64,000 bases of DNA from a virus (Duplodnaviria; Caudoviricetes). The stretch spans positions 111,416 through 175,415 of the IMG/VR virus record IMGVR_UViG_2832410175_000003; one strand, given 5' to 3'. The notes beneath the pieces were generated by a model. That model was given only the letters and a program-made list of their open reading frames with translations. It was not told the origin of the DNA and did no database searches. This document shows positions 41,489-52,676 of this stretch, piece after piece. Position 1 is the first letter of the stretch; each line of letters starts with the position of its first letter. The translations under genes and the position numbers were made by a program.

Positions 41489-42694
41489 ATGGAGAAACGA
41501 AAACTTTCAGGAAAAACAATTTTGAAGCTGGCAGGGGCACTTTTGGCTCTGGCTTATTTGGGATTCTATTTTTATGTAGGTATTACAGGAAAACTTCCTT
41601 ATATGCACGAAACTGTACATATCATGCGATACGGAGATCGTAAAAAATGGGTGGCAGGTGGTATGACAGCAGCCATGATTCTTGGTATATGTATCAACTC
41701 TGCGCTTAATGACTTAAATCTCAAGAGGATACGCAAGGAGTCATTTCTACCCTTGTTTTTCACTATGATTTTTCCGATTATCCTCCTTCTGCTTCTGGAA
41801 GCTTTTCTGGATAATGGCTGGCTTGGGATTGGCATTTATGCCAGTGTTGCAATCTTCATGTGTGCGACTGCATGGATTCCACTGATCCTAAGAAAATGGA
41901 TCACCCATCTACTTTTGCGTGACAAACCTATGAGTGGCAAACAGCAAGTGCGGATCATTGAGTGGATTCATTTTCATCCACTGAAAAAGTTGCTGGTTTT
42001 CGGGCTGTGGGGCTTTGGCGTTGTACTGGTTCTGCGTGGCATCTGGGTAACGGCAACCGGGAAAATCGAAATGGATGGAGAGCTTTTTCTGTTTTTACTT
42101 GGCACAGCAGTTCTGGCTGTAGCGCTGTTTCAGAAAATGAGACGCTATATCTGCACGCCTTACCGGAACATACCGGTACTGAATCAGATTCTCAGCAAAA
42201 ATCAGCTGGAACAGCTGCTGGATGGAGAACATTTTGAACCAATAGAGTTTGAAGATGAGGGCATGAAAAAGTATCTGGAAATATACCAAAGCCAGAACTG
42301 GATGCTGATTGGCGGTAAGCTACTCTCAAAAAAGCTGGCTTTATGGTTCACAATGAATCGGTTCAGGAACCATACTTCCCTGAAGGTACTTTACCTGAAC
42401 GGCATGACTGCCAAAGCAAAGGTCGATCTGGATATTCGAGGGGACCGGTACACGGAGTTTACTGCTGTGCTGAAAGAATTGATTGGATACGAAGGCACAC
42501 TTAAGCTGTATGAAAAAGAAGAACAGCTGGCACAGAAATTTGCATCCTTTTTCCCAGAGCAAACTTCCGAACAGGACCGTGTCGCTGCTTTTCTTTCTCA
42601 GGATGTGACAGCGATCCGGCAGGACTATATTCAGACCTTCTCTCCACCGCCAGATCCCCGAAAGAAAAAACGGAGTAGACGGGAACGGGAATAA
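41489..42694 (+). CDS. Membrane protein
   Basis: About six hydrophobic segments plus a soluble C-terminus. Confidence 0.78.
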   Translation: MEKRKLSGKTILKLAGALLALAYLGFYFYVGITGKLPYMHETVHIMRYGDRKKWVAGGMTAAMILGICINSALNDLNLKRIRKESFLPLFFTMIFPIILLLLLEAFLDNGWLGIGIYASVAIFMCATAWIPLILRKWITHLLLRDKPMSGKQQVRIIEWIHFHPLKKLLVFGLWGFGVVLVLRGIWVTATGKIEMDGELFLFLLGTAVLAVALFQKMRRYICTPYRNIPVLNQILSKNQLEQLLDGEHFEPIEFEDEGMKKYLEIYQSQNWMLIGGKLLSKKLALWFTMNRFRNHTSLKVLYLNGMTAKAKVDLDIRGDRYTEFTAVLKELIGYEGTLKLYEKEEQLAQKFASFFPEQTSEQDRVAAFLSQDVTAIRQDYIQTFSPPPDPRKKKRSRRERE

Positions 42695-42762
42695 AAGGTT
42701 TTCTTCAATTTCAATGGAGAAAGGCTTACGAAAATAAAGAGGATATAACTTGGAGGTTACCT

Positions 42763-43308
42763 ATGAACTATGATATGAATATGATTAAATACCGCAAAAG
42801 TGGGTTTTTCAGAATTGCAGCAGCTATTCTGATGATCTGTTTTACACTATTTGGGCTTACCGCTTGCGCCGGTACTACTGACAGCAAAGATAATAACGAT
42901 GATAATGCACTGATACAAGGGACATGGGAAATAGATACCGGCTCTGGTGCTGGTTATAAATTCGTTGACGATAAGTTTATGTGGTTAAAATCCATCGAGA
43001 ATGTTAACGATAACTACTGGTACGGAGATGTTGAGTATTATAAAGGTGCTGAAGCAATGGAAATAGCAGGACTAACAGAGGAGGAACTTCAAAGCAGCCT
43101 GCCAGGTCTTAAACCTGAAAACATTTTTGTAACAAAATTAGATCCCGAAAAAATCATTACCGATGGTGAGGATAAAACTGCTACCAATATGAACGACCAA
43201 ACCTTATGGACTCGCTTATGGCTTATTGAAGAAAATGAGGACAGTGTTGCTGCGGTAGTGTTTGATTTAGAAACTTTTAGTATGGAGAGCTACACTAAAG
43301 TTAAGTAA
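42763..43308 (+). CDS. Lipoprotein
   Basis: LFGLTA-C lipobox; SD GGAGG. Confidence 0.78.
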   Translation: MNYDMNMIKYRKSGFFRIAAAILMICFTLFGLTACAGTTDSKDNNDDNALIQGTWEIDTGSGAGYKFVDDKFMWLKSIENVNDNYWYGDVEYYKGAEAMEIAGLTEEELQSSLPGLKPENIFVTKLDPEKIITDGEDKTATNMNDQTLWTRLWLIEENEDSVAAVVFDLETFSMESYTKVK

Positions 43309-43398
43309 AACCAGAAATTTGAAGTTGTGTAATTGAAATGTCACAGATGTATTGGGAGAAAGAGTTATGGTTATAAAGAACTGGGAAGGAGAAATATT

Positions 43399-43719
43399 AT
43401 GGCTGTTGATAACGCAAGTCAGATTGATGCAATCGCAAACGATAAAGAAAATGCTTGTTTGGTACTCCTTATTACCGACCATTTGAATTGGGACAATGAG
43501 TTTGAACACTTGAAGATTTTACAAGATAAAATCAATGCGTATGTGGCTTTTATCGAAAGCGAACAGTACGATGAAATATACCCCAATGCTGATTTTAAGA
43601 TGGCTATGATAGAAATCCATTTCAAGTATGATATAACAGATAACTGCCAGAAATTTTTGCAAGTAGTTCAAGATCAATTAGGACGGATAGGGATAAAAAT
43701 CAAGGCACAGATTAGCTAA
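43399..43719 (+). CDS. DUF6572-like small protein
   Basis: IDAIA...LITDHLNW..EHL..LQDKINAY..FIES. Confidence 0.7.
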   Translation: MAVDNASQIDAIANDKENACLVLLITDHLNWDNEFEHLKILQDKINAYVAFIESEQYDEIYPNADFKMAMIEIHFKYDITDNCQKFLQVVQDQLGRIGIKIKAQIS

Positions 43720-43960
43720 CAGTTTCCAGTTTGTAGAACTTAGTAAAACAAAATTCAGTTTGCATAGCAGGCAGCCCAACCACAATTAAATCTTCACAGC
43801 TTTACTAAGCAGGAGATCCGAAAAGGTCTCCTGCTTTTTTGCACCCTAAATTAAATGTATCACAGCTAAAACTATCGAAAACAAAATAGGCAGATACCAT
43901 AAAAGAAGTTTTTCTTTGGATAGTGCTTGTCTTTTTTGAATTCATCACTTGACATTGTGG

Positions 43961-44240
43961 CAAAGAGCTGATGACTCAGGACGAGATCGCGGTGATGGAC
44001 GGAGGCAAGTGTATCTTGCAGCTTCGAGGGGTGCGGCCGTTTTTCAGCGACAAGTTTGATATAACCCGCCATCCCCGCTACAAGTACCTTGCTGATGCCG
44101 ACAAGAAAAATACCTTTGACATTGAACGGTACATGAAACGCAGACCGGCCATTGTGAAGCCGGACGAGCCTTTCGATCTGTACGAATTGAAAGCCACCGA
44201 CCTTCAACCCAACAATTCAACTGAACGAAAGGAAATGTGA
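43961..44240 (+). pseudogene. virD4: VirD4/TraG C-terminal fragment
   Basis: (G)KELMTQDEIAVMDGGKCILQLRGVRPFFSDKFDIT. Confidence 0.85.
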
Positions 44241-44242
44241 AT

Positions 44243-44401
44243 ATGAGCTTTTTTACTAACGCTATCGACGTTTTGCAGACTCTGGTCATCGCCCTGGGCG
44301 GCGGCCTGTGCGTGTGGGGCGGCATCAACCTTCTGGAAGGTTACGGCCAGGACAACCCTGCCTCCAAAAGCCAGGGCATCAAGCAGTTCATGGCTAATTA
44401 A
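44243..44401 (+). pseudogene. maff2: Maff2 (pilin-like) protein, 5' part (interrupted)
   Basis: MSFFTNAIDVLQTLVIALGGGLCVWGGINLLEGYGQDNPASKSQG, then a premature stop. Confidence 0.85.
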
Positions 44402-44555
44402 AGGGAACAAAAAGAAAGGAAAAGCCAATCCAGACGGTATCAGCGGCAGGCTACAAGAATAAATTGTGATTTCACAAGATTGGTGCTATAATAAGAGAAA
44501 AGTTCCTGCCGGGGCAGCCGCTCCGGTGGTATGGATAGAAAGGCAGGAAAACAAT

Positions 44556-44828
44556 ATGCACATCAGCTATAAACCACTCTGGCACACACTGTTAGAGCGT
44601 GATATGAGAAAAGAGGATTTAAGGCTTGCCGCTGGTATGACAACAAATATGATTGCCAACATGAGCAAAGAGGGAAAGCACATCAGCATGGATACATTAG
44701 CCCGTATCTGCGAAACGCTGAATTGTGAGATTACCGATGTGATTGAGTTAGTACCAGACGAGCCTGCTTCCACAGGAGGTAAGGAACATGAGCGAATTGA
44801 AACCAAGAATAAAAGAAAACGGAATTGA
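44556..44828 (+). CDS. Cro/C1-type HTH protein
   Basis: ISYKPLW...ISMDTLARICETLNCEITDV. Confidence 0.85.
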   Translation: MHISYKPLWHTLLERDMRKEDLRLAAGMTTNMIANMSKEGKHISMDTLARICETLNCEITDVIELVPDEPASTGGKEHERIETKNKRKRN

Positions 44829-45165
44829 TTATATCCTTGTTGGAGATTACTACATCCCGGACTTGAAGTTGCCGGAGGAACACCGCCCCATCGGAAAGTA
44901 CGGACGGATGCACCGGGAATATTTAAGAGAAGTCTGCCCAGCCAGATTACACACATTGACCCTGACCGGGGAATTGTGGACATATCTTGCAGACCTGAAC
45001 GAACAGGCACAGAAACGGTTAGACACCATCATGGAGCAGATGAAAGCTGCCGAGGGCGTGACCGAGGAATTGAAGCGTACCCGTCAAATGGAATGGGTGC
45101 AGCGTTGCAATAACATTCACAACCGGGCAGAAGAAATTGTTTTACATGAGATGATTTATTCATAA
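44788..45165 (+). CDS. tnpV: TnpV family protein
   Basis: [12 protein letters not shown]...IGKYGRMHREYL. Confidence 0.88.
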   Translation: MSELKPRIKENGIDYILVGDYYIPDLKLPEEHRPIGKYGRMHREYLREVCPARLHTLTLTGELWTYLADLNEQAQKRLDTIMEQMKAAEGVTEELKRTRQMEWVQRCNNIHNRAEEIVLHEMIYS

Positions 45166-45216
45166 CGGTATGGTAGAATGATTATTACAAATTAGAAGTT
45201 GTAAAGGAGACTTTGT

Positions 45217-45708
45217 ATGGGTAGAAAAGAAATAACAACAAAAGAAGATTTAATGAAAGTAATAGAATTATTCGAAAATACTGGAATTACATACTGGTTG
45301 GATGGCGGATGGGGTGTAGATATTTTAGCTGGTAAACAAACAAGAATTCATAGAGATATAGATATAAATTTTGATGCTCAACATACGGAAAAATTGTTAA
45401 ATGTGCTTTTGAATCTGGGCTATAAAATTGATACAGACTGGAAACCGGTTAGAATAGAGTTATATAGTGATGAACTTGGTTACTTAGACATTCACCCGTT
45501 CGTTTTAAGTGAGGACGGAACTTCAAAACAAGCTGATTTAGAGGGTGGCTGGTATGAGTTTGAAAAAGATTACTTTGGTAGTGCTTTTTTTGAAGGAAAA
45601 ACAATTCCTTGTATATCCTTAAAAGGCCAAAGAGTTTTCCATTCAGGTTATGAATTAAGAGATAAAGATAAGCATGATATTTCAATTCTTGAAAGTTTAT
45701 CAAAATAA
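45217..45708 (+). CDS. lnu: Lincosamide nucleotidyltransferase, Lnu(A)-like
   Basis: YWLDGGWGVD..GKQTR.HRDIDI.FDAQHT, GYLDIHP and IPCIS...FHSGY. Confidence 0.85.
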   Translation: MGRKEITTKEDLMKVIELFENTGITYWLDGGWGVDILAGKQTRIHRDIDINFDAQHTEKLLNVLLNLGYKIDTDWKPVRIELYSDELGYLDIHPFVLSEDGTSKQADLEGGWYEFEKDYFGSAFFEGKTIPCISLKGQRVFHSGYELRDKDKHDISILESLSK

Positions 45709-45826
45709 CATTGCTGTAATTTCTAAGATAAATTCCACTTTATCGCTTTGAAATTTTAACTGAATAAGTATAGCACCAACCGCTGCTACATGGAAGCAAA
45801 CACAACCATGCAACAGCGGTTTTTCT

Positions 45827-46633
45827 TTACCGTTTTTTCCTTTGACTGATAGGAGTTCCTGTTTTCTTTGATTTTTGTAGAATCCGAATGAGCCAGCGAA
45901 ATTCTTCGTCTGACAGATTTTTATAGTTGATGCCGAGCTGCTTGCAGTAAAGGACAACCAGCTTTTCATCCCGACTGCCCTTGAAATTTTCAACCGCTTC
46001 CAAATTTTCTTTCAATTCATCGGCAACGGTGGTCTGGGGCGCACTCTCGCTGTCCTTTTTGTGGGCTTCCCGAATATCCCGGATAATGAGATTGAGGTCA
46101 TCAAGAACCATGTGGCTGAAATATTCATCATCGCTGATATGGGCGGCTTGCAGCACTTTCAAATGCGGGTCGTCTTCGCCGGGGCGATACCGTTCAATGA
46201 TTTCATGCCGGACAGTATCGACAAGGGCGTTGAGGTTTTGAATCTGCATGGTGGCAATCCCATCTACATAAATCTCAATGTCCGCAAGAAACTTGATAAA
46301 GTCCTTATGAGTGGCAAGCTCACAGAGCAGACGGTTGTTAATCCGACCGCCTTTCAGAAGTGCCACCATCTCATCATTCAAATGCAGCTCTGTTAGTGGC
46401 GTGTTGATCTGCTCCCGGTTCTCTGTCCGGCACAGCAGATAATCAACGGAAACCCCATAGAAGTCTGCCAGCGTGATAAGGTTGCCATGATTGATTTCCT
46501 TATAATCCTCTTTTTCATAACTGCCAAGAGCTGATTTGGAAATGCCCGTCAGCTCTGATAATTCTTCCAGATTTAAGCCTTTGTCCTTGCGGAGTTCCCA
46601 AAGGCGTTCCTGTATGCTTGTCGCTCCTTTCAT
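45827..46633 (-). CDS. XRE-family HTH regulator
   Basis: LEELSELTGISKSALGSYE...YGVSVDYL. Confidence 0.88.
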   Translation of the reverse strand: MKGATSIQERLWELRKDKGLNLEELSELTGISKSALGSYEKEDYKEINHGNLITLADFYGVSVDYLLCRTENREQINTPLTELHLNDEMVALLKGGRINNRLLCELATHKDFIKFLADIEIYVDGIATMQIQNLNALVDTVRHEIIERYRPGEDDPHLKVLQAAHISDDEYFSHMVLDDLNLIIRDIREAHKKDSESAPQTTVADELKENLEAVENFKGSRDEKLVVLYCKQLGINYKNLSDEEFRWLIRILQKSKKTGTPISQRKKR

Positions 46634-47116
46634 GGGCGCACGCTCCTTTCCGGCGGTTTCATTACTGCCGCTTAACTGGATTATATCATACTTTCCGCAA
46701 TCGTGGAAATTTCTGATTTTTACCCTTAATTCCTACTTTGTGGACATACGGCACAGGGCACAAAAATGTTCTATGATACAGGTAGTTCATCGATGGATTA
46801 TTCCAATCGAATGACCAGCCTGTGTGGGATATGCTTCCCCGGCGATGTAGCGCCATGACTTTTGGCAGGGATATGGAGGAACCCTGACCGAAACGAGCGT
46901 ACCAAAGGGAGCAATACGCCGCTGTGAGATTCAGGGGAGGAACGACACCGGGGAGAACTGGCGAACTGATACCGAAATGATACCGAAACACGACAATCTG
47001 ATAGGGGGATAGTCTACCCTATTGCTGATACTTCTGGAGATTTTAGACGGCTCTATGACCGTAATTTTGCCGAAAATCGCCCCGAAACTATACACTAAAA
47101 CGGGAGGAAACGCAAT

Positions 47117-47305
47117 ATGCCGAGAATGAGCAAAAAGAGGAAGCATGAGCTTTCTTTTTACCTCAATGACCGGGGGCGTGTCACTTACAACGAATTATGC
47201 CGGAAATGCAAGCATGGGTGCAAGCAGAGCTTCCGGGCGGTTGTGGTTGACTGCCCCCGTTATTTATCCAAAAGAGCAAAGAAAAAGGAGGAACACACCG
47301 AATGA
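47117..47305 (+). CDS. Small basic Cys-rich protein
   Basis: CRKCKHGCKQS...CPRY; SD GGGAGG. Confidence 0.7.
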   Translation: MPRMSKKRKHELSFYLNDRGRVTYNELCRKCKHGCKQSFRAVVVDCPRYLSKRAKKKEEHTE

Positions 47306-47643
47306 ATTTTGAATTTATGACGATAGGCACACCGTTGCCGCCCTGTATGCCCTTTCCCAGAGCGTTGACAGGATTTCCAGTCAGCAGCACCGCAAAGGTC
47401 ATGTACTGCCGGATGTTGGACGCTATGCTATCCAACGGACAGGAGGACGAGAACGGAATCCTGTTTATCTGCTTCCCTGTCACAGCCATTGCCGCAGTCC
47501 TGTCCCGCAGCCCCATGACGGTCAAGCGTTCTCTGAATGAACTGGAAACCGCCGGACTGATCATGCGAGTGCGTCAGGGCGTTGGAGAACCAAACAGGAT
47601 TTATGTGCTGATACCGGGAAAGGAGGACGCTGCCCTTGCCTGA
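47302..47643 (+). CDS. RepA-N-like winged-helix protein
   Basis: AKVMY...TVKRSLNELETAGLI.R...PNRIYV. Confidence 0.7.
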   Translation: MNFEFMTIGTPLPPCMPFPRALTGFPVSSTAKVMYCRMLDAMLSNGQEDENGILFICFPVTAIAAVLSRSPMTVKRSLNELETAGLIMRVRQGVGEPNRIYVLIPGKEDAALA

Positions 47644-47932
47644 TACCTCAAAGCTGGAAAAGCTCAACCGAGAGTTGGAAAAGAGTGAAAAGAAACTGCG
47701 GAAAGCCATCAATGATGAAAAGGCATTGCAGCACCAGCTAAAGCAGCTTACCCGAAAAGAACGGACACACCGGCTCTGTACTCGTGGCGGTATGCTGGAA
47801 AGTTTTCTGCAAGAGCCGGAACGCCTGACAGATGATGATGTCATGCTGTTGTTGACACTCATTTTTCACAGGCAGGACACGCAGGAACTATTGAAGAAAC
47901 TGCTGGAACGTGAGAAGCCGGAAACCCCTTAG
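47636..47932 (+). CDS. DUF3847-like mobilization accessory protein
   Basis: RKERTHRLCTRGGMLES, next to oriT. Confidence 0.75.
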   Translation: MPDTSKLEKLNRELEKSEKKLRKAINDEKALQHQLKQLTRKERTHRLCTRGGMLESFLQEPERLTDDDVMLLLTLIFHRQDTQELLKKLLEREKPETP

Positions 47933-47937
47933 TTTAC

Positions 47938-47978
47938 TAAGGGCGCAATTATACACCACCCAAAGGTTGGTGCATTGC
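47938..47978 (-). other. MOBQ-type oriT (nic core)
   Basis: Minus strand TAATTGCGCCCT resembles the RSF1010-family core TAAGTGCGCCCT, with an adjacent inverted repeat. Confidence 0.7.
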
Positions 47979-48284
47979 GTTCTCCGAAGGCTCCTTGCCG
48001 GAGGGCTGTGATTTTTCGCAGTCATGGTCTGCTCCAAATCATACAGGGGACGCTACGCTTCCCCTGCGCTGGCTACCGCCAGCTACCCTTTTGTGGACTT
48101 GTCATCTGGGGACACCTTGCGTTGCAAGCTGTTCCCAGCCGACAAGTTTCATAAAATATGCTATCTTTTCGATAGGCAATAAAGTATAATAAAGTCAGCA
48201 ATAAATCGGAATTTTACGGTCAGTAAGGAATGCGTAAAGTTATATGATTGTATTATAAGCGATTTGTTAAATTTTTATAACCAC

Positions 48285-48533
48285 TTGTATTTGCCTGCGA
48301 TTTATGGTATAATATTTTGAAATTTAGAAAGAGGTGGGAAGATGATTAACTTTTCTTGCAAATAAAATCAAAATATGCGGTAGTGCTATACTTTGGCATT
48401 ATTGTGTCTATTGCAAGAAAGTTATATGTCTATCTTACTCAATATAGTGCTGTTGCCACTTTTGCTTAGTGGTGTTATTTTATGCTATGACGAGCTGCAA
48501 GGATAAACTTTCTTGTGGCTCTTATTTTGTTTT
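48285..48533 (+). promoter_or_regulatory. lsa promoter and ribosome-dependent attenuator
   Basis: TTGTAT-17-TATAAT; uORF MINFSCK at 48342-48365; alternative pairings; terminator at 48492-48533. Confidence 0.75.
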
Positions 48534-48678
48534 GGAGGTGCTTTATGAATAGTGCAGAACAGATAGTTACACATGATTCACTCCGTATAGTGTCGGTTCC
48601 TTTTGGTGAAATCTATACGTAGTAAACATTCACCGAACCGACTTTGTATCGTATGACATGCAAAGGAGGATAATATTT

Positions 48679-50139
48679 ATGTCAATGATTAAAATTGAAA
48701 ACCTTACGTTTTCATATCCGACAAGTTATGATAATGTTTTTGAAAATGTCAGTTTCCAGGTTGATACCGATTGGAAGCTTGGTTTTGTGGGCAGAAACGG
48801 ACGAGGTAAAACAACCTTTCTGAATCTTCTGCTTGGGAAATATGAGTATAGTGGAAAAATCCTATCATCCGTACAGTTTGATTATTTTCCTTATCCCGTT
48901 TCAGATAAGAATCGTATTACAGAGGATATATTGCAGGAGATTTGCCCACTTGCGGAAGAATGGGAACTTATGCGAGAACTTTCTTATCTTGATGTTGATG
49001 TCGATGTGCTTTGGCGACCTTTTGAAACACTTTCCAACGGAGAGCAGACAAAGGTTTTGATTGCCGCTCTTTTTCTTAATGAAGGGCATTTCCTACTGAT
49101 TGATGAACCTACCAACCATTTGGATGCCAAAGCGAGAAAAAGTGTGGCGGCATATCTGAAAAAGAAAAAGGGATTCATCTTAGTTTCTCACGATCGTCGC
49201 TTTCTTGACGATTGTGTTGACTATATTCTATCGATTAACCGAGCGAATATCGAAGTGCAAAGAGGAAACTTTTCATCATGGATGTCAAATTTTGAGCGAC
49301 AGCAAGAATTTGAACTGGCTCAGAACGAACGTTTGCAAAAGGACATCAGACGATTACAGCAGTCGGCAAAACGCGCTGCAGTATGGTCTGAACGTGTAGA
49401 AGCTTCCAAAATTGGGGCAGCAGATAAAGGTTATGTCGGTCATAAAGCCGCCAAAATGATGAAGCGTTCAAAATCTATAGAAGCGAGACAACAACAGACA
49501 ATCGAACAAAAATCAGCATTGCTGAAAAATATGGAAACCGCAGAAGCCCTCAAGATACAACCGCTTAATTACCATACAGATTTGCTTGCATCATTATCGA
49601 ATGTAGTAGTTTATTATGATGGCATTTCAGTTTGTGAACCCGTTTCGTTTGAAATAAGACAGGGAGAACGCATTGTGCTTGATGGAAAGAACGGCAGTGG
49701 CAAAAGTAGCCTGTTAAAGTTGGTAGTCGGGCAGTCCATAGATTATACGGGTACAGTAACACTTGGCTCTGGGCTTGTAATTTCTTATGTGCCACAGGAT
49801 ACATCGTATTTATGTGGAACCCTTTCCGAGTTTGCAGAAGAAAACAACCTTGATGAAAGTTTGTTCAAGGCAATTCTTAGGAAAATGGACTTTGAGCGTG
49901 TACAGTTTGAAAAGGATATTAAAGACTTTTCTGGCGGGCAAAAGAAGAAAGTCCTAATTGCGAAAAGCCTTTGTGAAAAGGCACACTTGTATGTATGGGA
50001 TGAACCGCTCAACTTTATTGATGTGTACTCACGTATGCAGATTGAACAACTCATAACGGAGTTTGCCCCGACCATGCTCCTGGTAGAACATGACAGTGTT
50101 TTTCGAGATACTGTGGCAAGTAAAATTGTGAATATCTAA
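48679..50139 (+). CDS. lsa: ABC-F ribosomal protection protein, Lsa family
   Basis: NLTFSY...DTDWKLGFVGRNGRGKTT; two ABC cassettes with a linker and no TM segment. Confidence 0.88.
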   Translation: MSMIKIENLTFSYPTSYDNVFENVSFQVDTDWKLGFVGRNGRGKTTFLNLLLGKYEYSGKILSSVQFDYFPYPVSDKNRITEDILQEICPLAEEWELMRELSYLDVDVDVLWRPFETLSNGEQTKVLIAALFLNEGHFLLIDEPTNHLDAKARKSVAAYLKKKKGFILVSHDRRFLDDCVDYILSINRANIEVQRGNFSSWMSNFERQQEFELAQNERLQKDIRRLQQSAKRAAVWSERVEASKIGAADKGYVGHKAAKMMKRSKSIEARQQQTIEQKSALLKNMETAEALKIQPLNYHTDLLASLSNVVVYYDGISVCEPVSFEIRQGERIVLDGKNGSGKSSLLKLVVGQSIDYTGTVTLGSGLVISYVPQDTSYLCGTLSEFAEENNLDESLFKAILRKMDFERVQFEKDIKDFSGGQKKKVLIAKSLCEKAHLYVWDEPLNFIDVYSRMQIEQLITEFAPTMLLVEHDSVFRDTVASKIVNI

Positions 50140-50353
50140 ATTGGTTCTTCCGCAATTTTACGTTTTTCGCTTTAATAAAAATGGAGAATGCTGATTTACA
50201 CTGGCATTCCAGTATTGAAAAATTACAAAATACGGATAATTGCGTAAGAACCTCTAAATTAAAATAATTGTATGGGTTAATTCCAGCTTTACAGAGACTC
50301 AAATTCCAGTTTGTAGAATTAAGAAAATCGTAATTTGTGGAGGTAAAATATAG

Positions 50354-50899
50354 ATGAATCAAGGTAGAATTATTGTAATCACAGGTGCGCCGGGGACAGG
50401 AAAAACTACAACGGCATCTGCTGTTGCAAAAGAATCAGATTTGGAAAAGTCTGTGCATATGCACACAGATGACTTTTATCATTATTTGAGTAAAGGGGCA
50501 ATACCACCGCATTTGCCAGAATCAAATGAGCAAAATTTGATTGTCATTGAAGCGTTTTTAGAAGCTGCGAAGCGATATGCTCGTGGTGGATATGATGTAA
50601 TTGTTGACGGTATTATCGGACCGTGGTTTTTAAAGCCGTGGCAAAGTCTTGTTCGGGAACATTATGAGGTGCATTATATTATTTTAAGGGCAAGTAAGGA
50701 AGAAACCTTGAAGCGAGCTGTTGAACGCTCAAAGTTAGACCGAAAGACAAATATCGAATTGGTAGAAACCATGTGGGAGCAATTTTGCAATCTGGGAATA
50801 TATGAATCGAATGTTATAGATACGACCACTTATTCCATTCAAGAAACTGTTTCCGCAGTACAAGAAAAAATCGCAAGTAGGGCAGCGTTGTTGTCTTAG
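50354..50899 (+). CDS. P-loop small-molecule kinase (AAA_33/CPT-like)
   Basis: GAPGTGKTT; GYDVIVD. Confidence 0.8.
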   Translation: MNQGRIIVITGAPGTGKTTTASAVAKESDLEKSVHMHTDDFYHYLSKGAIPPHLPESNEQNLIVIEAFLEAAKRYARGGYDVIVDGIIGPWFLKPWQSLVREHYEVHYIILRASKEETLKRAVERSKLDRKTNIELVETMWEQFCNLGIYESNVIDTTTYSIQETVSAVQEKIASRAALLS

Positions 50900-51095
50900 A
50901 TTGTTTTGGTGCAATTCCAGTTTGTTAGCTTTACATCGGGTCAACTTGTCCCGAACTTTTACAACTAAATACCCGCCGCTCACACAGTGGCACACCGAGC
51001 AGGAAATCTGAAAAAGGTCTCCTGCTTTTTTTCTGCCCAAAATGAGGTGGTAAAACGCCACCCCATCCACCAATTAGCGAAAGGAGGGACACGAA

Positions 51096-52676
51096 ATGCC
51101 TTGTCCACACAACGAAATCACGATTGTTCAGCGCAGCCAGCGGCAGTCTGCGGTTGCCGCCGCTGCTTACCAAAGCGGCGAAAAGCTGTTCTGTGAATAC
51201 GACCAGCAAGTAAAGCACTACCCGGAAAAGCGTGGTATCGTCCACAATGAAATCCTGCTCCCGGCAAATGCTCCACAGGAATATGCAGACCGCAATACTT
51301 TATGGAATGCCGCCGAAGCGGTGGAAAAGCAATGGAACTCCCAGCTTGCAAGGCGGTGGGTGCTTACCATTCCCAGAGAGATACCGCCCGACCAGTACGC
51401 TGTCCTTGTACGGGAGTTTTGTGAACAGCAGTTTGTTTCCAAAGGCATGATTGCTGATTTTGCCATCCATGACCCCCATCCGCCGGGACACAATCCCCAC
51501 GCCCATGTCCTGCTGACCATGCGGGCAATGGATGAACATGGAAAATGGCTTCCCAAGAGCCGCAAGGTTTATGACCTTGACGAGAATGGGGAACGGATAA
51601 AGCTGCCGTCCGGCAGGTGGAAAAGCCACAAGGAGGATACGGTGGACTGGAACGACCAGAAGTATTGTGAAATCTGGCGGCATGAATGGGAGGTTATCCA
51701 GAACCGCTATCTGGACGCCAATGACCGCCCGGAGCGTGTGGACTTGCGTTCCTATGCCAGACAGGGGCTTGATATAGTCCCCACTGTCCATGAGGGGACT
51801 GCTGTCCGGCAGATGGAAAAGCGAGGTATCCAGACGAATATCGGCAACCTGAACCGGGAAATCAGAGCCGCCAACCGCCTGATGAAGTCCATCCGGCAGC
51901 TTATCCAAAACCTCAAAGGCTGGATTACCGAGCTGGGAGAAAAACGGAAGGAGCTGCTTGCACAAAAGGCGGCGGAGGAAGCGACACTTCTTCCCAATCT
52001 GCTGATGAAGTATATGGAGATACGAAAGGAAGAACGGAAGGACTGGACAAGGGCTGGACAGAACCGGGGAACTTCACAGGACTTAAAGGCAGTCAGCGAA
52101 GCCCTGTCCTATCTCCGGCAAAAGGGGCTTTCCACTGTGGAGGACTTAGAAGCGTTTCTGGAATCTTCCGGGAAATCAGCCGCAGATTACCGCAATCAGA
52201 TGAAGCCAAAGGAAGCCCGGAGCAAAGTGATTGACGGGATTCTTGCCAGCCGGACAGACTGCAAGGAATGTAAGGCTGTCTATGAGAAGTACCAGAAGAT
52301 ATTTTTTAAGAAAATAAAGGGGAAATTCAAACAGGAACACCCGGAGGTTGCCCGGTATGAGAAAGCCGCTGACTACCTTGCCAAGCACCCGGACGATAAG
52401 GATAAAACGAAAAATGAGTTGCAACAGGAGCAGGAAACGCTTCTCAGCGAAATCGCAGAGCTGAAAGTACCACTGACCGAGGTACAGGAGGATTTGAAGA
52501 AGCTGCGGGACATCCGCTACTGGGTACGGAAAGCCACACCCGGCACAGAGGAAAGCAAAGAGCCGCCCAAGAAGCAGCCCATCAAAGAAGTCTTGCAGGA
52601 TAAGACTGACGAGAAAAAAGCACAAAGAACCGCCCCGGCACAGGAGAAACACAGACAACAGGATATGGAACTTTAA
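51096..52676 (+). CDS. mobA: MobA/MobL (MOBQ) relaxase
   Basis: SAVAAAAY, LWNAAE and DFAIHD...NPHAHVLLT. Confidence 0.92.
   Translation: MPCPHNEITIVQRSQRQSAVAAAAYQSGEKLFCEYDQQVKHYPEKRGIVHNEILLPANAPQEYADRNTLWNAAEAVEKQWNSQLARRWVLTIPREIPPDQYAVLVREFCEQQFVSKGMIADFAIHDPHPPGHNPHAHVLLTMRAMDEHGKWLPKSRKVYDLDENGERIKLPSGRWKSHKEDTVDWNDQKYCEIWRHEWEVIQNRYLDANDRPERVDLRSYARQGLDIVPTVHEGTAVRQMEKRGIQTNIGNLNREIRAANRLMKSIRQLIQNLKGWITELGEKRKELLAQKAAEEATLLPNLLMKYMEIRKEERKDWTRAGQNRGTSQDLKAVSEALSYLRQKGLSTVEDLEAFLESSGKSAADYRNQMKPKEARSKVIDGILASRTDCKECKAVYEKYQKIFFKKIKGKFKQEHPEVARYEKAADYLAKHPDDKDKTKNELQQEQETLLSEIAELKVPLTEVQEDLKKLRDIRYWVRKATPGTEESKEPPKKQPIKEVLQDKTDEKKAQRTAPAQEKHRQQDMEL

Follow-up and report, generated by a model that had tools for sequence, protein, structure and literature searches.

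A stretch of 64,000 nucleotides from a 175-kb viral contig (IMG/VR record IMGVR_UViG_2832410175_000003), hereafter referred to as the window, in whose numbering positions are given, harbors four cargo genes, each of which is bracketed by a 16-mer lying in inverted orientation on its two sides. The four genes code for a DUF6572 protein, a nucleotidyltransferase (lnu), an ABC-F protein of the Lsa family (lsa), and a P-loop kinase; they are located in two nested integrative mobilisable elements (IMEs) inside a conjugative element, and the nested IMEs carry TnpV, a MobQ relaxase, and large serine recombinases. The 16-mer preceding a gene is referred to as L and the one following it as R (Table 1), while loci of other sequences are cited as L plus a number. 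The original prediction viewed the 16-mers as the borders of individually mobile modules; the nine positions and sequences on which it was built, as well as the 8-bp AGAATTAA lying between two of them, proved exact when verified against the window sequence.

Table 1. Sites, cargo genes, and expression signals of the cassettes in the window, and insertions of the IS91-family element in other loci.
Feature	Position	Strand	Remarks
L of DUF6572 cassette	43313..43328	+	weak copy AGAAATTTGAAGTTGT; alleles of relatives ACAAAAATTAGAAGTTGT or ACAGGAATTAGAAGTTGT
DUF6572 cargo gene, 106 aa	43399..43719	+	Pfam PF20212, E 1e-35
R of DUF6572 cassette	43719..43734	+	begins on the final A of the TAA stop codon
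Second R-like copy after DUF6572	43748..43763	+	within the 29-nt allele-specific insert
Resident extended -10 promoter of slot 1, TGgTAGAAT	45171..45179	+	TAGAAT at 45174-45179, 7 nt before L of lnu
L of lnu cassette	45187..45202	+	ACAAATTAGAAGTTGT; homology to other lnu contexts begins within it
lnu cargo gene, 163 aa	45217..45708	+	Lnu(AN2)/Lnu(A)-like nucleotidyltransferase
R of lnu cassette	45728..45743	+	ATAAATTCCACTTTAT; shared homology stops at ATAAATT/, outer half depends on context
Resident -10 box of slot 2, TATAAT	48185..48190	+	10 nt before L; kept in IME relatives with other cargo
L of slot 2 (lsa cassette)	48201..48216	+	ATAAATCGGAATTTTA; backbone homology with L168, L160, L170, and L172 stops at ...CGGAATTT
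lsa cargo: leader of ~460 nt and ABC-F gene (48679-50139)	48217..50139	+	NCBIfam ABCF_Lsa_all, 771 bits
R of lsa cassette	50299..50314	+	TCAAATTCCAGTTTGT
8-nt spacer between lsa and kinase cassettes	50315..50322	+	AGAATTAA
L of kinase cassette	50323..50338	+	GAAAATCGTAATTTGT; BLAST homology to Campylobacter copies begins at 50325-50340
P-loop kinase cargo gene, 181 aa	50354..50899	+	CPT/AAA_18-like
R of kinase cassette, right edge of slot 2	50910..50925	+	IME backbone homology returns at 50913, AATTCCAGTT(T/C)GT
Intrinsic terminator of the backbone, closing slot 2	50997..51032	+	read from sequence; related hairpin behind the DUF6572 slot, 43800-43832
IS91-family insertions	L009:3520-6065; L007:560-2986; L166:995-3553; L174 and L175, ~1395

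The motif is far above background in the window. Its core AATTCCAGTTTGT, searched with at most 2 mismatches, gave 8 matches against 1.74 expected, a number reached in 0/100 shuffles, and the 16-mer with at most 3 mismatches gave 7 matches against 0.57 expected. Over the whole 175-kb contig, the sites matching at 13/14 positions or better are confined to the four AT-rich cargo genes, with the only exception of one match in a coding region (window 35703), which is due to chance. The left sites of the DUF6572, lsa, and kinase genes match the consensus at only 11-12 of the 16 positions, and their assignment is justified by the comparative data, not by the window alone.

The comparison of related elements disclosed that the same slot can host different cargo. 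Slot 2 of the IME, placed between the DUF3847 gene and the relaxase gene, always starts with ...TATAAT-N10-AYAAATC(A)GGAATTT and ends with AATTCCAGTT(T/C)GT followed by the backbone terminator. In the window, it contains lsa and the kinase gene; in an Enterococcus faecalis plasmid, it contains a GNAT gene, the kinase gene, a hypothetical gene, and an APH gene, and in Vescimonas a CPCC gene plus a hypothetical one; further cargoes are a 145-aa gene and a leader followed by an RlmA-like methyltransferase gene. With every cargo, the homology of the backbone stops at L and returns at R, and the same junction (R, 8 nt, and L) that follows lsa in the window is found behind the GNAT gene of the E. 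faecalis plasmid. Similarly, in pTet plasmids, a 140-aa gene has been swapped for lnu between the same L and R, the left flanks being identical as far as ATAAATTAGAATTTG and the right ones from AAATTCCAGTTTGT onward. The boundaries of cargo gain, loss, and replacement lie, therefore, within the motifs, which is the outcome of the test that the original prediction had named, i.e., the mapping of breakpoints in related elements. The swaps leave the promoter and the terminator of the slot unchanged. Slots of this type occur in IMEs, IS1595-type transposons, pTet and Inc18-like plasmids, and chromosomal units of the form "promoter-L ... R-terminator"; the arrangement of slot 1, with a -10 box followed by L, recurs in other slots.

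As for the DUF6572 gene, its upstream neighbors are identical in 10/10 places read, and the alleles of the element diverge directly after its R. Two alleles of the IME were observed past this site (window 43735-43775 versus L031-L037): one has an insert of 29 nt that includes another R-like site and may be what is left of a lost cassette, and the other has GTAACTGGAAGA, which folds with R into a hairpin. L040 contains an IS630-like element at a TA located 8 nt past the R of DUF6572.

Conversely, the same cargo is embedded in different backbones. The lnu gene was found in the IME, in a TnpW context (L001), in a phage-like locus (L003), as an additional copy in one genome (L165), and in pTet plasmids of Campylobacter, and the identical protein occurs in 18,853 blocks of the sequence collection searched. 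On the left side, homology between these contexts begins at or inside ACAAATTAGAAGTTGT; on the right side, what follows ATAAATT is CCACTTTAT in the IME, GCAGTTTGT in L003 and L165, and CCAGTTTGT in pTet. The BLAST match with pTet corresponds to window positions 45189/45193-45745, i.e., it runs from site to site. The kinase (identical protein in 19,501 blocks of the same collection) was found in the IME, in an IS1595-type transposon, in a pcp' slot, and in the E. faecalis plasmid. The inner halves of its sites are invariant (AATTTGT ... TGCAATT), while the outer half and the centre vary with the context: those of L are GAAAAT-CGTA behind lsa, ACAAAT-CGGA in the pcp' slot, and CCTAAT-TAGA behind the IS1595-family transposase, and the right side is CCAGTTTGT or CCCATTTAT. 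The sites of cat (catA13) in Campylobacter and in Aeromonas pAsa4 behave as those of lnu and the kinase. Since the outer parts vary with the context, no more than 6-7 nt at the inner side of each site travel with the cargo, and the remainder (centre plus outer half) is a property of the slot. The homology shared by unrelated backbones is limited to the 14-16 bp of the site, a length too short for efficient RecA-dependent exchange.

Two further carriers of such cargo can be described. In Campylobacter chromosomes (L014, L016, L018, and L020), an IS1595-family transposon, located in four different chromosomal places, harbors the kinase gene, aph, and pcp' plus a variable last cassette, which is ant(6)-sat4-aphA3, cat, or a second kinase gene; these cassettes lie between the transposase gene and the right inverted repeat. 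In pAsa4 of Aeromonas salmonicida (NC_009349.1; L169:3690-4700), catA13 with its L and R is inserted in the attI1/Pc region beside intI1, and the insert also holds a fragment of a Firmicutes primase-like gene but no attC. The pAsa4 catA13 is a Clostridial-type cassette residing in a class 1 integron.

The anatomy of the cassettes can be read directly from these loci. L (consensus AYAAATCGGAATTTGT) lies 7-10 nt past a resident -10 box, and the ribosome binding site (RBS) and the open reading frame (ORF) follow 10-18 nt further; R (AAATTC-YRR-TTTRT) is an inverted L that overlaps or closely follows the stop codon. In the window, in agreement with the original prediction, the left site of lnu is 7 nt downstream of TAGAAT and that of lsa 10 nt downstream of TATAAT. 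Judging from the geometry of the promoter, L should be at about +1 of the transcript of the resident promoter, so that the cassettes are promoterless. They are not always single genes, as witnessed by three co-oriented genes (117, 292, and 193 aa) enclosed in one L...R pair (L241:1813-3765). Moreover, a cassette can include a regulatory leader, provided that the leader of lsa (window 48217-48678), in which short ORFs and hairpins were observed, is a ribosome-mediated attenuator, as we presume by analogy with ABC-F genes. The Lsa-family gene is annotated as 486 aa in relatives.

Cassettes of this structure are widespread. The pattern TATAAT-N7-10-AYAAATCGGAATTT occurs, among the matches listed, in more than 115 species genomes, against about 9 expected by chance according to our own calculation; nearly all of these species are Ruminococcus, Oscillospiraceae, or Lachnospiraceae, with few Erysipelotrichia and Bacteroidota. 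The original prediction had proposed scanning Clostridia genomes for the motif at the boundaries of variable genes. Among the 77 genes that lie downstream of promoter-L matches with enough sequence, 43 have an inverted R (12/14 positions or better) within 60 nt of the stop codon, compared with 0/77 in a window 200 nt further downstream and 2/77 inside the gene. Both sites were present in 47 cassettes; in 17 of these, the stop codon is overlapped by R, in 37 the start codon lies 10-18 nt from L, and in just one are the two centres exactly complementary. L and R are conserved in sequence without covariation, and this, together with the non-complementary centres, fits recognition by a protein and two non-equivalent sites. 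The cargo comprises GNATs, a glyoxalase/bleomycin-resistance protein, isochorismatase, NUDIX, alpha/beta hydrolases, Mrr, Imm43, a MccF-like peptidase, GyrI-like and PfkB proteins, and another Lnu-like enzyme. In viral contigs, the pattern consisting of R, 4-14 nt, and L has 0 matches, and the exact 14-mer AAATTCCAGTTTGT has 118, almost all of them chance matches within phage genes; thus, the motif is not a general feature of phages.

Cassettes can also be arranged in arrays. The chromosome of Ruminococcaceae bacterium P7 (L299:2180-8300) harbors, behind greA-lysS, an array of at least seven cassettes, in which a module composed of R, terminator, promoter, and L is repeated between the genes; the contig ends inside the array. 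Two identical C_GCAxxG_C_C genes were observed within the repeated inter-cassette module. Among neighboring cassettes in general, the spacer is 7, 8, or 18 nt long, or 130-250 nt when it holds terminators and a promoter. This does not agree with the proposal that arm, 8 bp, and inverted arm form one site of the lox or dif kind. The interpretation of R-spacer-L as a single loxP/FRT-like site was rejected on account of this variable length and of the breakpoints, which fall inside each 16-mer and not in the spacer.

A few loci depart from this scheme. In L300 (reverse complement, 500-1620), a 304-aa APH-like cassette lies between direct repeats of ~35 bp, each made up of R, the RBS, and the first three codons of the next gene; L is joined there after ATGAAAATA, suggesting insertion at a secondary site. 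In two units of one genome (L303:2040-2230 and L318:295-455), the "cargo" behind L is the same non-coding, hairpin-rich sequence of ~150 nt, at the end of which a motif copy in L orientation makes up a 12-bp hairpin together with R.

In R. albus-type genomes (L305-L314), conserved arms have L and R at their inner ends, the left arm being of ~135 bp (hairpin, TTGACA-17-TATAAT, and L) and the right one of ~95 bp (R and terminator). Each genome contains 8-15 such units with a different cargo in each, and the conservation ends exactly at L and returns at R. Inverted repeats of ~35 nt terminate the whole unit, which splits a GC-rich hairpin, specific to that unit, with a T-run behind it; judging by sequence, the units seem to have entered an intrinsic terminator at its loop. 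The unit with the PfkB cargo is present in two genomes (L306 and L311), inside different split hairpins. When autonomous elements bearing the terminal repeat of these Ruminococcus units were sought, the matches at 2 mismatches were as numerous as those of the control.

At least one recombination machinery recognizes these sites, as follows from the insertions of an IS91-family element. This element, ~2.5 kb long, encodes a Y2 HUH transposase and a tyrosine integrase, has a long terminal hairpin, and is joined at ...|AATT of L or R in 5/5 independent insertions, of which three interrupt an L or R belonging to lnu, each in a different context, and the others lie in similar sites of two unrelated contigs. 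The element invariably meets AATT with its ...GATTTTGTTC end, and 2-5 bp of the site recur at its other side. Concerning Xer recombination, a Bacillus-type dif pattern gave nothing above the control in five genomes, and a post-hoc resemblance to a XerD arm (8/11) is limited to the outer arm TTATGTTAGTA of the R. albus type, the other slots keeping only TTRT.

On these bases, the 16-mers may be interpreted as the two boundaries of widespread promoterless cassettes of gut Clostridia whose cargo is exchanged within L and R, a reading to which we attach an even chance. The cargo would move by cassette exchange between two L...R units, with one crossover in L and the other in R; we infer that L recombines with L and R with R through an enzyme acting in trans. 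A sequence-specific enzyme supplied in trans is the most likely catalyst; it might act on one pair of strands only, where the centre of the site meets its inner half, in the manner of integron or XerC-only reactions. With unlike centres in L and R, the cargo would be protected from being flipped. Exchange of this kind would be akin to dif-module shuffling or to recombinase-mediated cassette exchange, and unlike the integration of a circle. Indeed, the integron-like insertion of a circular cassette that had been suggested does not fit the data: the two sites of a cassette face in opposite directions and, in 46/47 cassettes, have different centres, so that they are not an attL/attR pair as left by a circle. 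Of the proposal that the modules are mobile and inserted by a recombinase in trans, the part concerning individually exchangeable modules is borne out by the swaps, whereas no recombinase has been identified.

Several observations weigh against this interpretation. No recombinase gene is consistently near the cassettes in the loci examined, and the integrase linked to the IS91-family element was discarded as a general engine, its best relatives in five cassette-rich Ruminococcus-type genomes being only 22-31% identical. The crossover points are not perfectly fixed, given that the pTet copy of lnu has the T of the slot at position 12 of L. Slot 1 of a Vescimonas IME is occupied by a DUF3658 gene without clear sites, which replaces the promoter, L, lnu, R, and 28 nt, its breakpoints lying beyond the promoter and the R that accompany lnu. 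An empty slot 2, i.e., a promoter fused directly to the backbone, was searched for as an exact pattern only and was not found among the metagenome contigs scanned, nor did any circular or exchanged intermediate come to light. In Ruminococcus, the arms of 95-135 bp would suffice for ordinary homologous recombination. Lastly, the location of L at the start of the transcript would equally suit an operator or a 5' element of the mRNA.

As the main alternative, it is also conceivable, though somewhat unlikely in our judgment, that L and R are expression signals (a 5' leader, hairpin, or operator and a 3' element pairing with it in the mRNA) conserved for that function, and that the swaps are rare accidents of short-homology or homologous recombination, fixed by selection, e.g., by antibiotics, and requiring no dedicated recombinase. 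The constant placement of L at 7-10 nt past the -10 box and of R between stop codon and terminator is what such signals would show, and, of the 14 positions of an average L:R pair, 11.7 could form Watson-Crick and 1.2 G-U pairs; the most frequent form of R, with a CTGA centre, departs from the perfect complement only by a G-U-compatible change. Nevertheless, within a gene there is no compensatory covariation between L and R, A-C mismatches are as frequent as G-U pairs, and no relevant Rfam 15 match (E up to 1) was retrieved in window 42500-51500 and four related loci. The Ruminococcus arms are long enough for RecA, the crossover positions are not strictly fixed, and no recombinase was found, all of which agrees with accidental exchange; on the other hand, unrelated backbones have only the 14-16 bp in common, and this explanation accounts neither for the trimming of dozens of unrelated ORFs to the stretch from RBS to stop codon between the motifs nor for the insertion of the IS91-family element, with its integrase, into both L and R.

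Two other explanations appear much less probable. The cassettes might be non-autonomous transposons, i.e., mobile insertion cassettes, with the motifs as terminal inverted repeats and the transposase encoded elsewhere, which we regard as improbable: L and R are indeed inverted repeats, and IS1595-family elements carry such cargo as passengers, yet no target duplications flank the 16-mers, their outer half and centre vary with the context while the cargo is constant, and the promoter and the terminator of the slot are untouched by the swaps. The terminal inverted repeats of ~35 nt and the different places of the PfkB unit in L306 and L311 point in the direction of transposition, even though the search for an insertion sequence (IS) with the ends of the Ruminococcus units remained at control level; transposition may explain the movement of the larger unit from promoter to terminator, not the exchange of cargo within it. 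The least probable of the explanations is that a Clostridial transcription factor, controlling a detoxification regulon, uses the motifs as its operators, to which the coincidence with breakpoints would be secondary. A quasi-palindrome (6-4-6) at the start site is typical of dimeric repressors, and the cargo consists mostly of small-molecule-modifying enzymes; a second, inverted copy at the stop codon would not be expected of an operator, nor would the retention of the sites on cassettes in Campylobacter, Enterococcus, and Aeromonas, and the sharp cargo boundaries would stay unexplained. Moreover, no regulator gene is linked to the cassettes.

Going back to exchange within L and R, a wider hypothesis can be put forward tentatively, with less than even confidence: gut Clostridia might possess a capture and exchange system of their own that plays the role of the integron, in which unrelated ORFs trimmed to the stretch from RBS to stop codon sit between two non-equivalent 16-bp sites of insulated promoter/terminator units, an enzyme acts in trans, the units settle in terminator loops, and the resistance cassettes of Campylobacter, Enterococcus, and Aeromonas have their source. 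Its pool would include lnu, lsa, cat, and the aph-linked kinase gene, swapped between chromosomes, IMEs, transposons, and plasmids. A literature search, which included the motif strings, retrieved no published description of L/R cassettes. If L and R are true exchange sites, they would represent a second, mechanistically distinct gene-cassette system in dominant bacteria of the human and animal gut, and this would explain the clean-edged single resistance genes (lnu, lsa, cat, and kinase/aph clusters) of IMEs, IS1595 transposons, pTet, and the Aeromonas plasmid. The L/R pair provides a simple signature with which metagenomes can be searched for the cassette pool, as well as for new genes of resistance or detoxification, and it makes the identity of the exchange catalyst directly testable. 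Even if they were expression signals only, they would define a portable "promoter-L-ORF-R-terminator" design, of which the same literature search found no description.

Among the known systems, integron cassettes share with the L/R units the prevalence of single promoterless ORFs with very short flanks, a boundary element over the stop codon, a resident promoter at the first site that drives the cargo (here suggested by geometry), and the formation of small arrays. The cargo is also alike (GNATs, glyoxalase/bleomycin-resistance proteins, isochorismatases, NUDIX, immunity proteins, and resistance enzymes), and in both cases a specialised IS targets the sites, as the IS1111-attC elements do. In integrons, each cassette has one attC, an imperfect palindrome of 57-141 bp (RYYYAAC ... 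GTTRRRY) in direct orientation, whereas the cassettes described here have two inverted sites of 14-16 bp without GTTRRRY, many units possess their own promoter and terminator, and no IntI is present beside the window cassettes or the seven-cassette array. Furthermore, the hosts are Clostridia, and we know of no report of integrons in this group. The position of cat beside intI1 in pAsa4 was considered as a sign of membership and rejected, since it belongs to a foreign insert that interrupts the attI1 region and is not an attC cassette.

The likeness to dif (pdif) modules of Acinetobacter plasmids, already pointed out in the original prediction, is apt: short inverted sites bracket alternating modules, no recombinase is encoded nearby, the same cargo is found on many replicons, and one slot hosts different cargo. 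These sites are 28 bp long, with a XerC arm, a 6-bp centre, and a XerD arm; unlike them, L and R contain no recognisable 11-6-11 Xer site, only ~4+4-6+4 nt being conserved, neighboring cassettes are separated by two sites and a spacer instead of sharing one site, and L is tied to the start site of a promoter. In two accounts, the shuffling of Acinetobacter dif modules is deduced comparatively and its mechanism is described as unsettled (PMC13141974, PMC7399989), while some IS target dif module sites specifically according to a third (PMC10132070).

Mobile insertion cassettes and passenger IS (MIC231, the IS1595-family "transporter" IS, and MTnSag1 with lnu(C)) are likewise transposase-less gene units with inverted ends, mobilised as a class in trans, and IS1595-family elements carry L/R cassettes as passengers; they differ in that the 16-mers have no target duplications and no known cognate IS, and their outer halves belong to the slot. 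The chromosomal units of the Ruminococcus type, being self-contained promoter-ORF-terminator insertions of foreign, AT-rich composition, recall phage morons and "minimal mobile elements"; however, morons have neither a conserved boundary motif nor interchangeable cargo in a conserved unit, and the window cassettes are promoterless. Defining features of both integron cassettes and Acinetobacter dif modules, the nearest known systems, were not recognised in the L/R units, which belong, as a kind, with the gene cassettes bounded by short sites.

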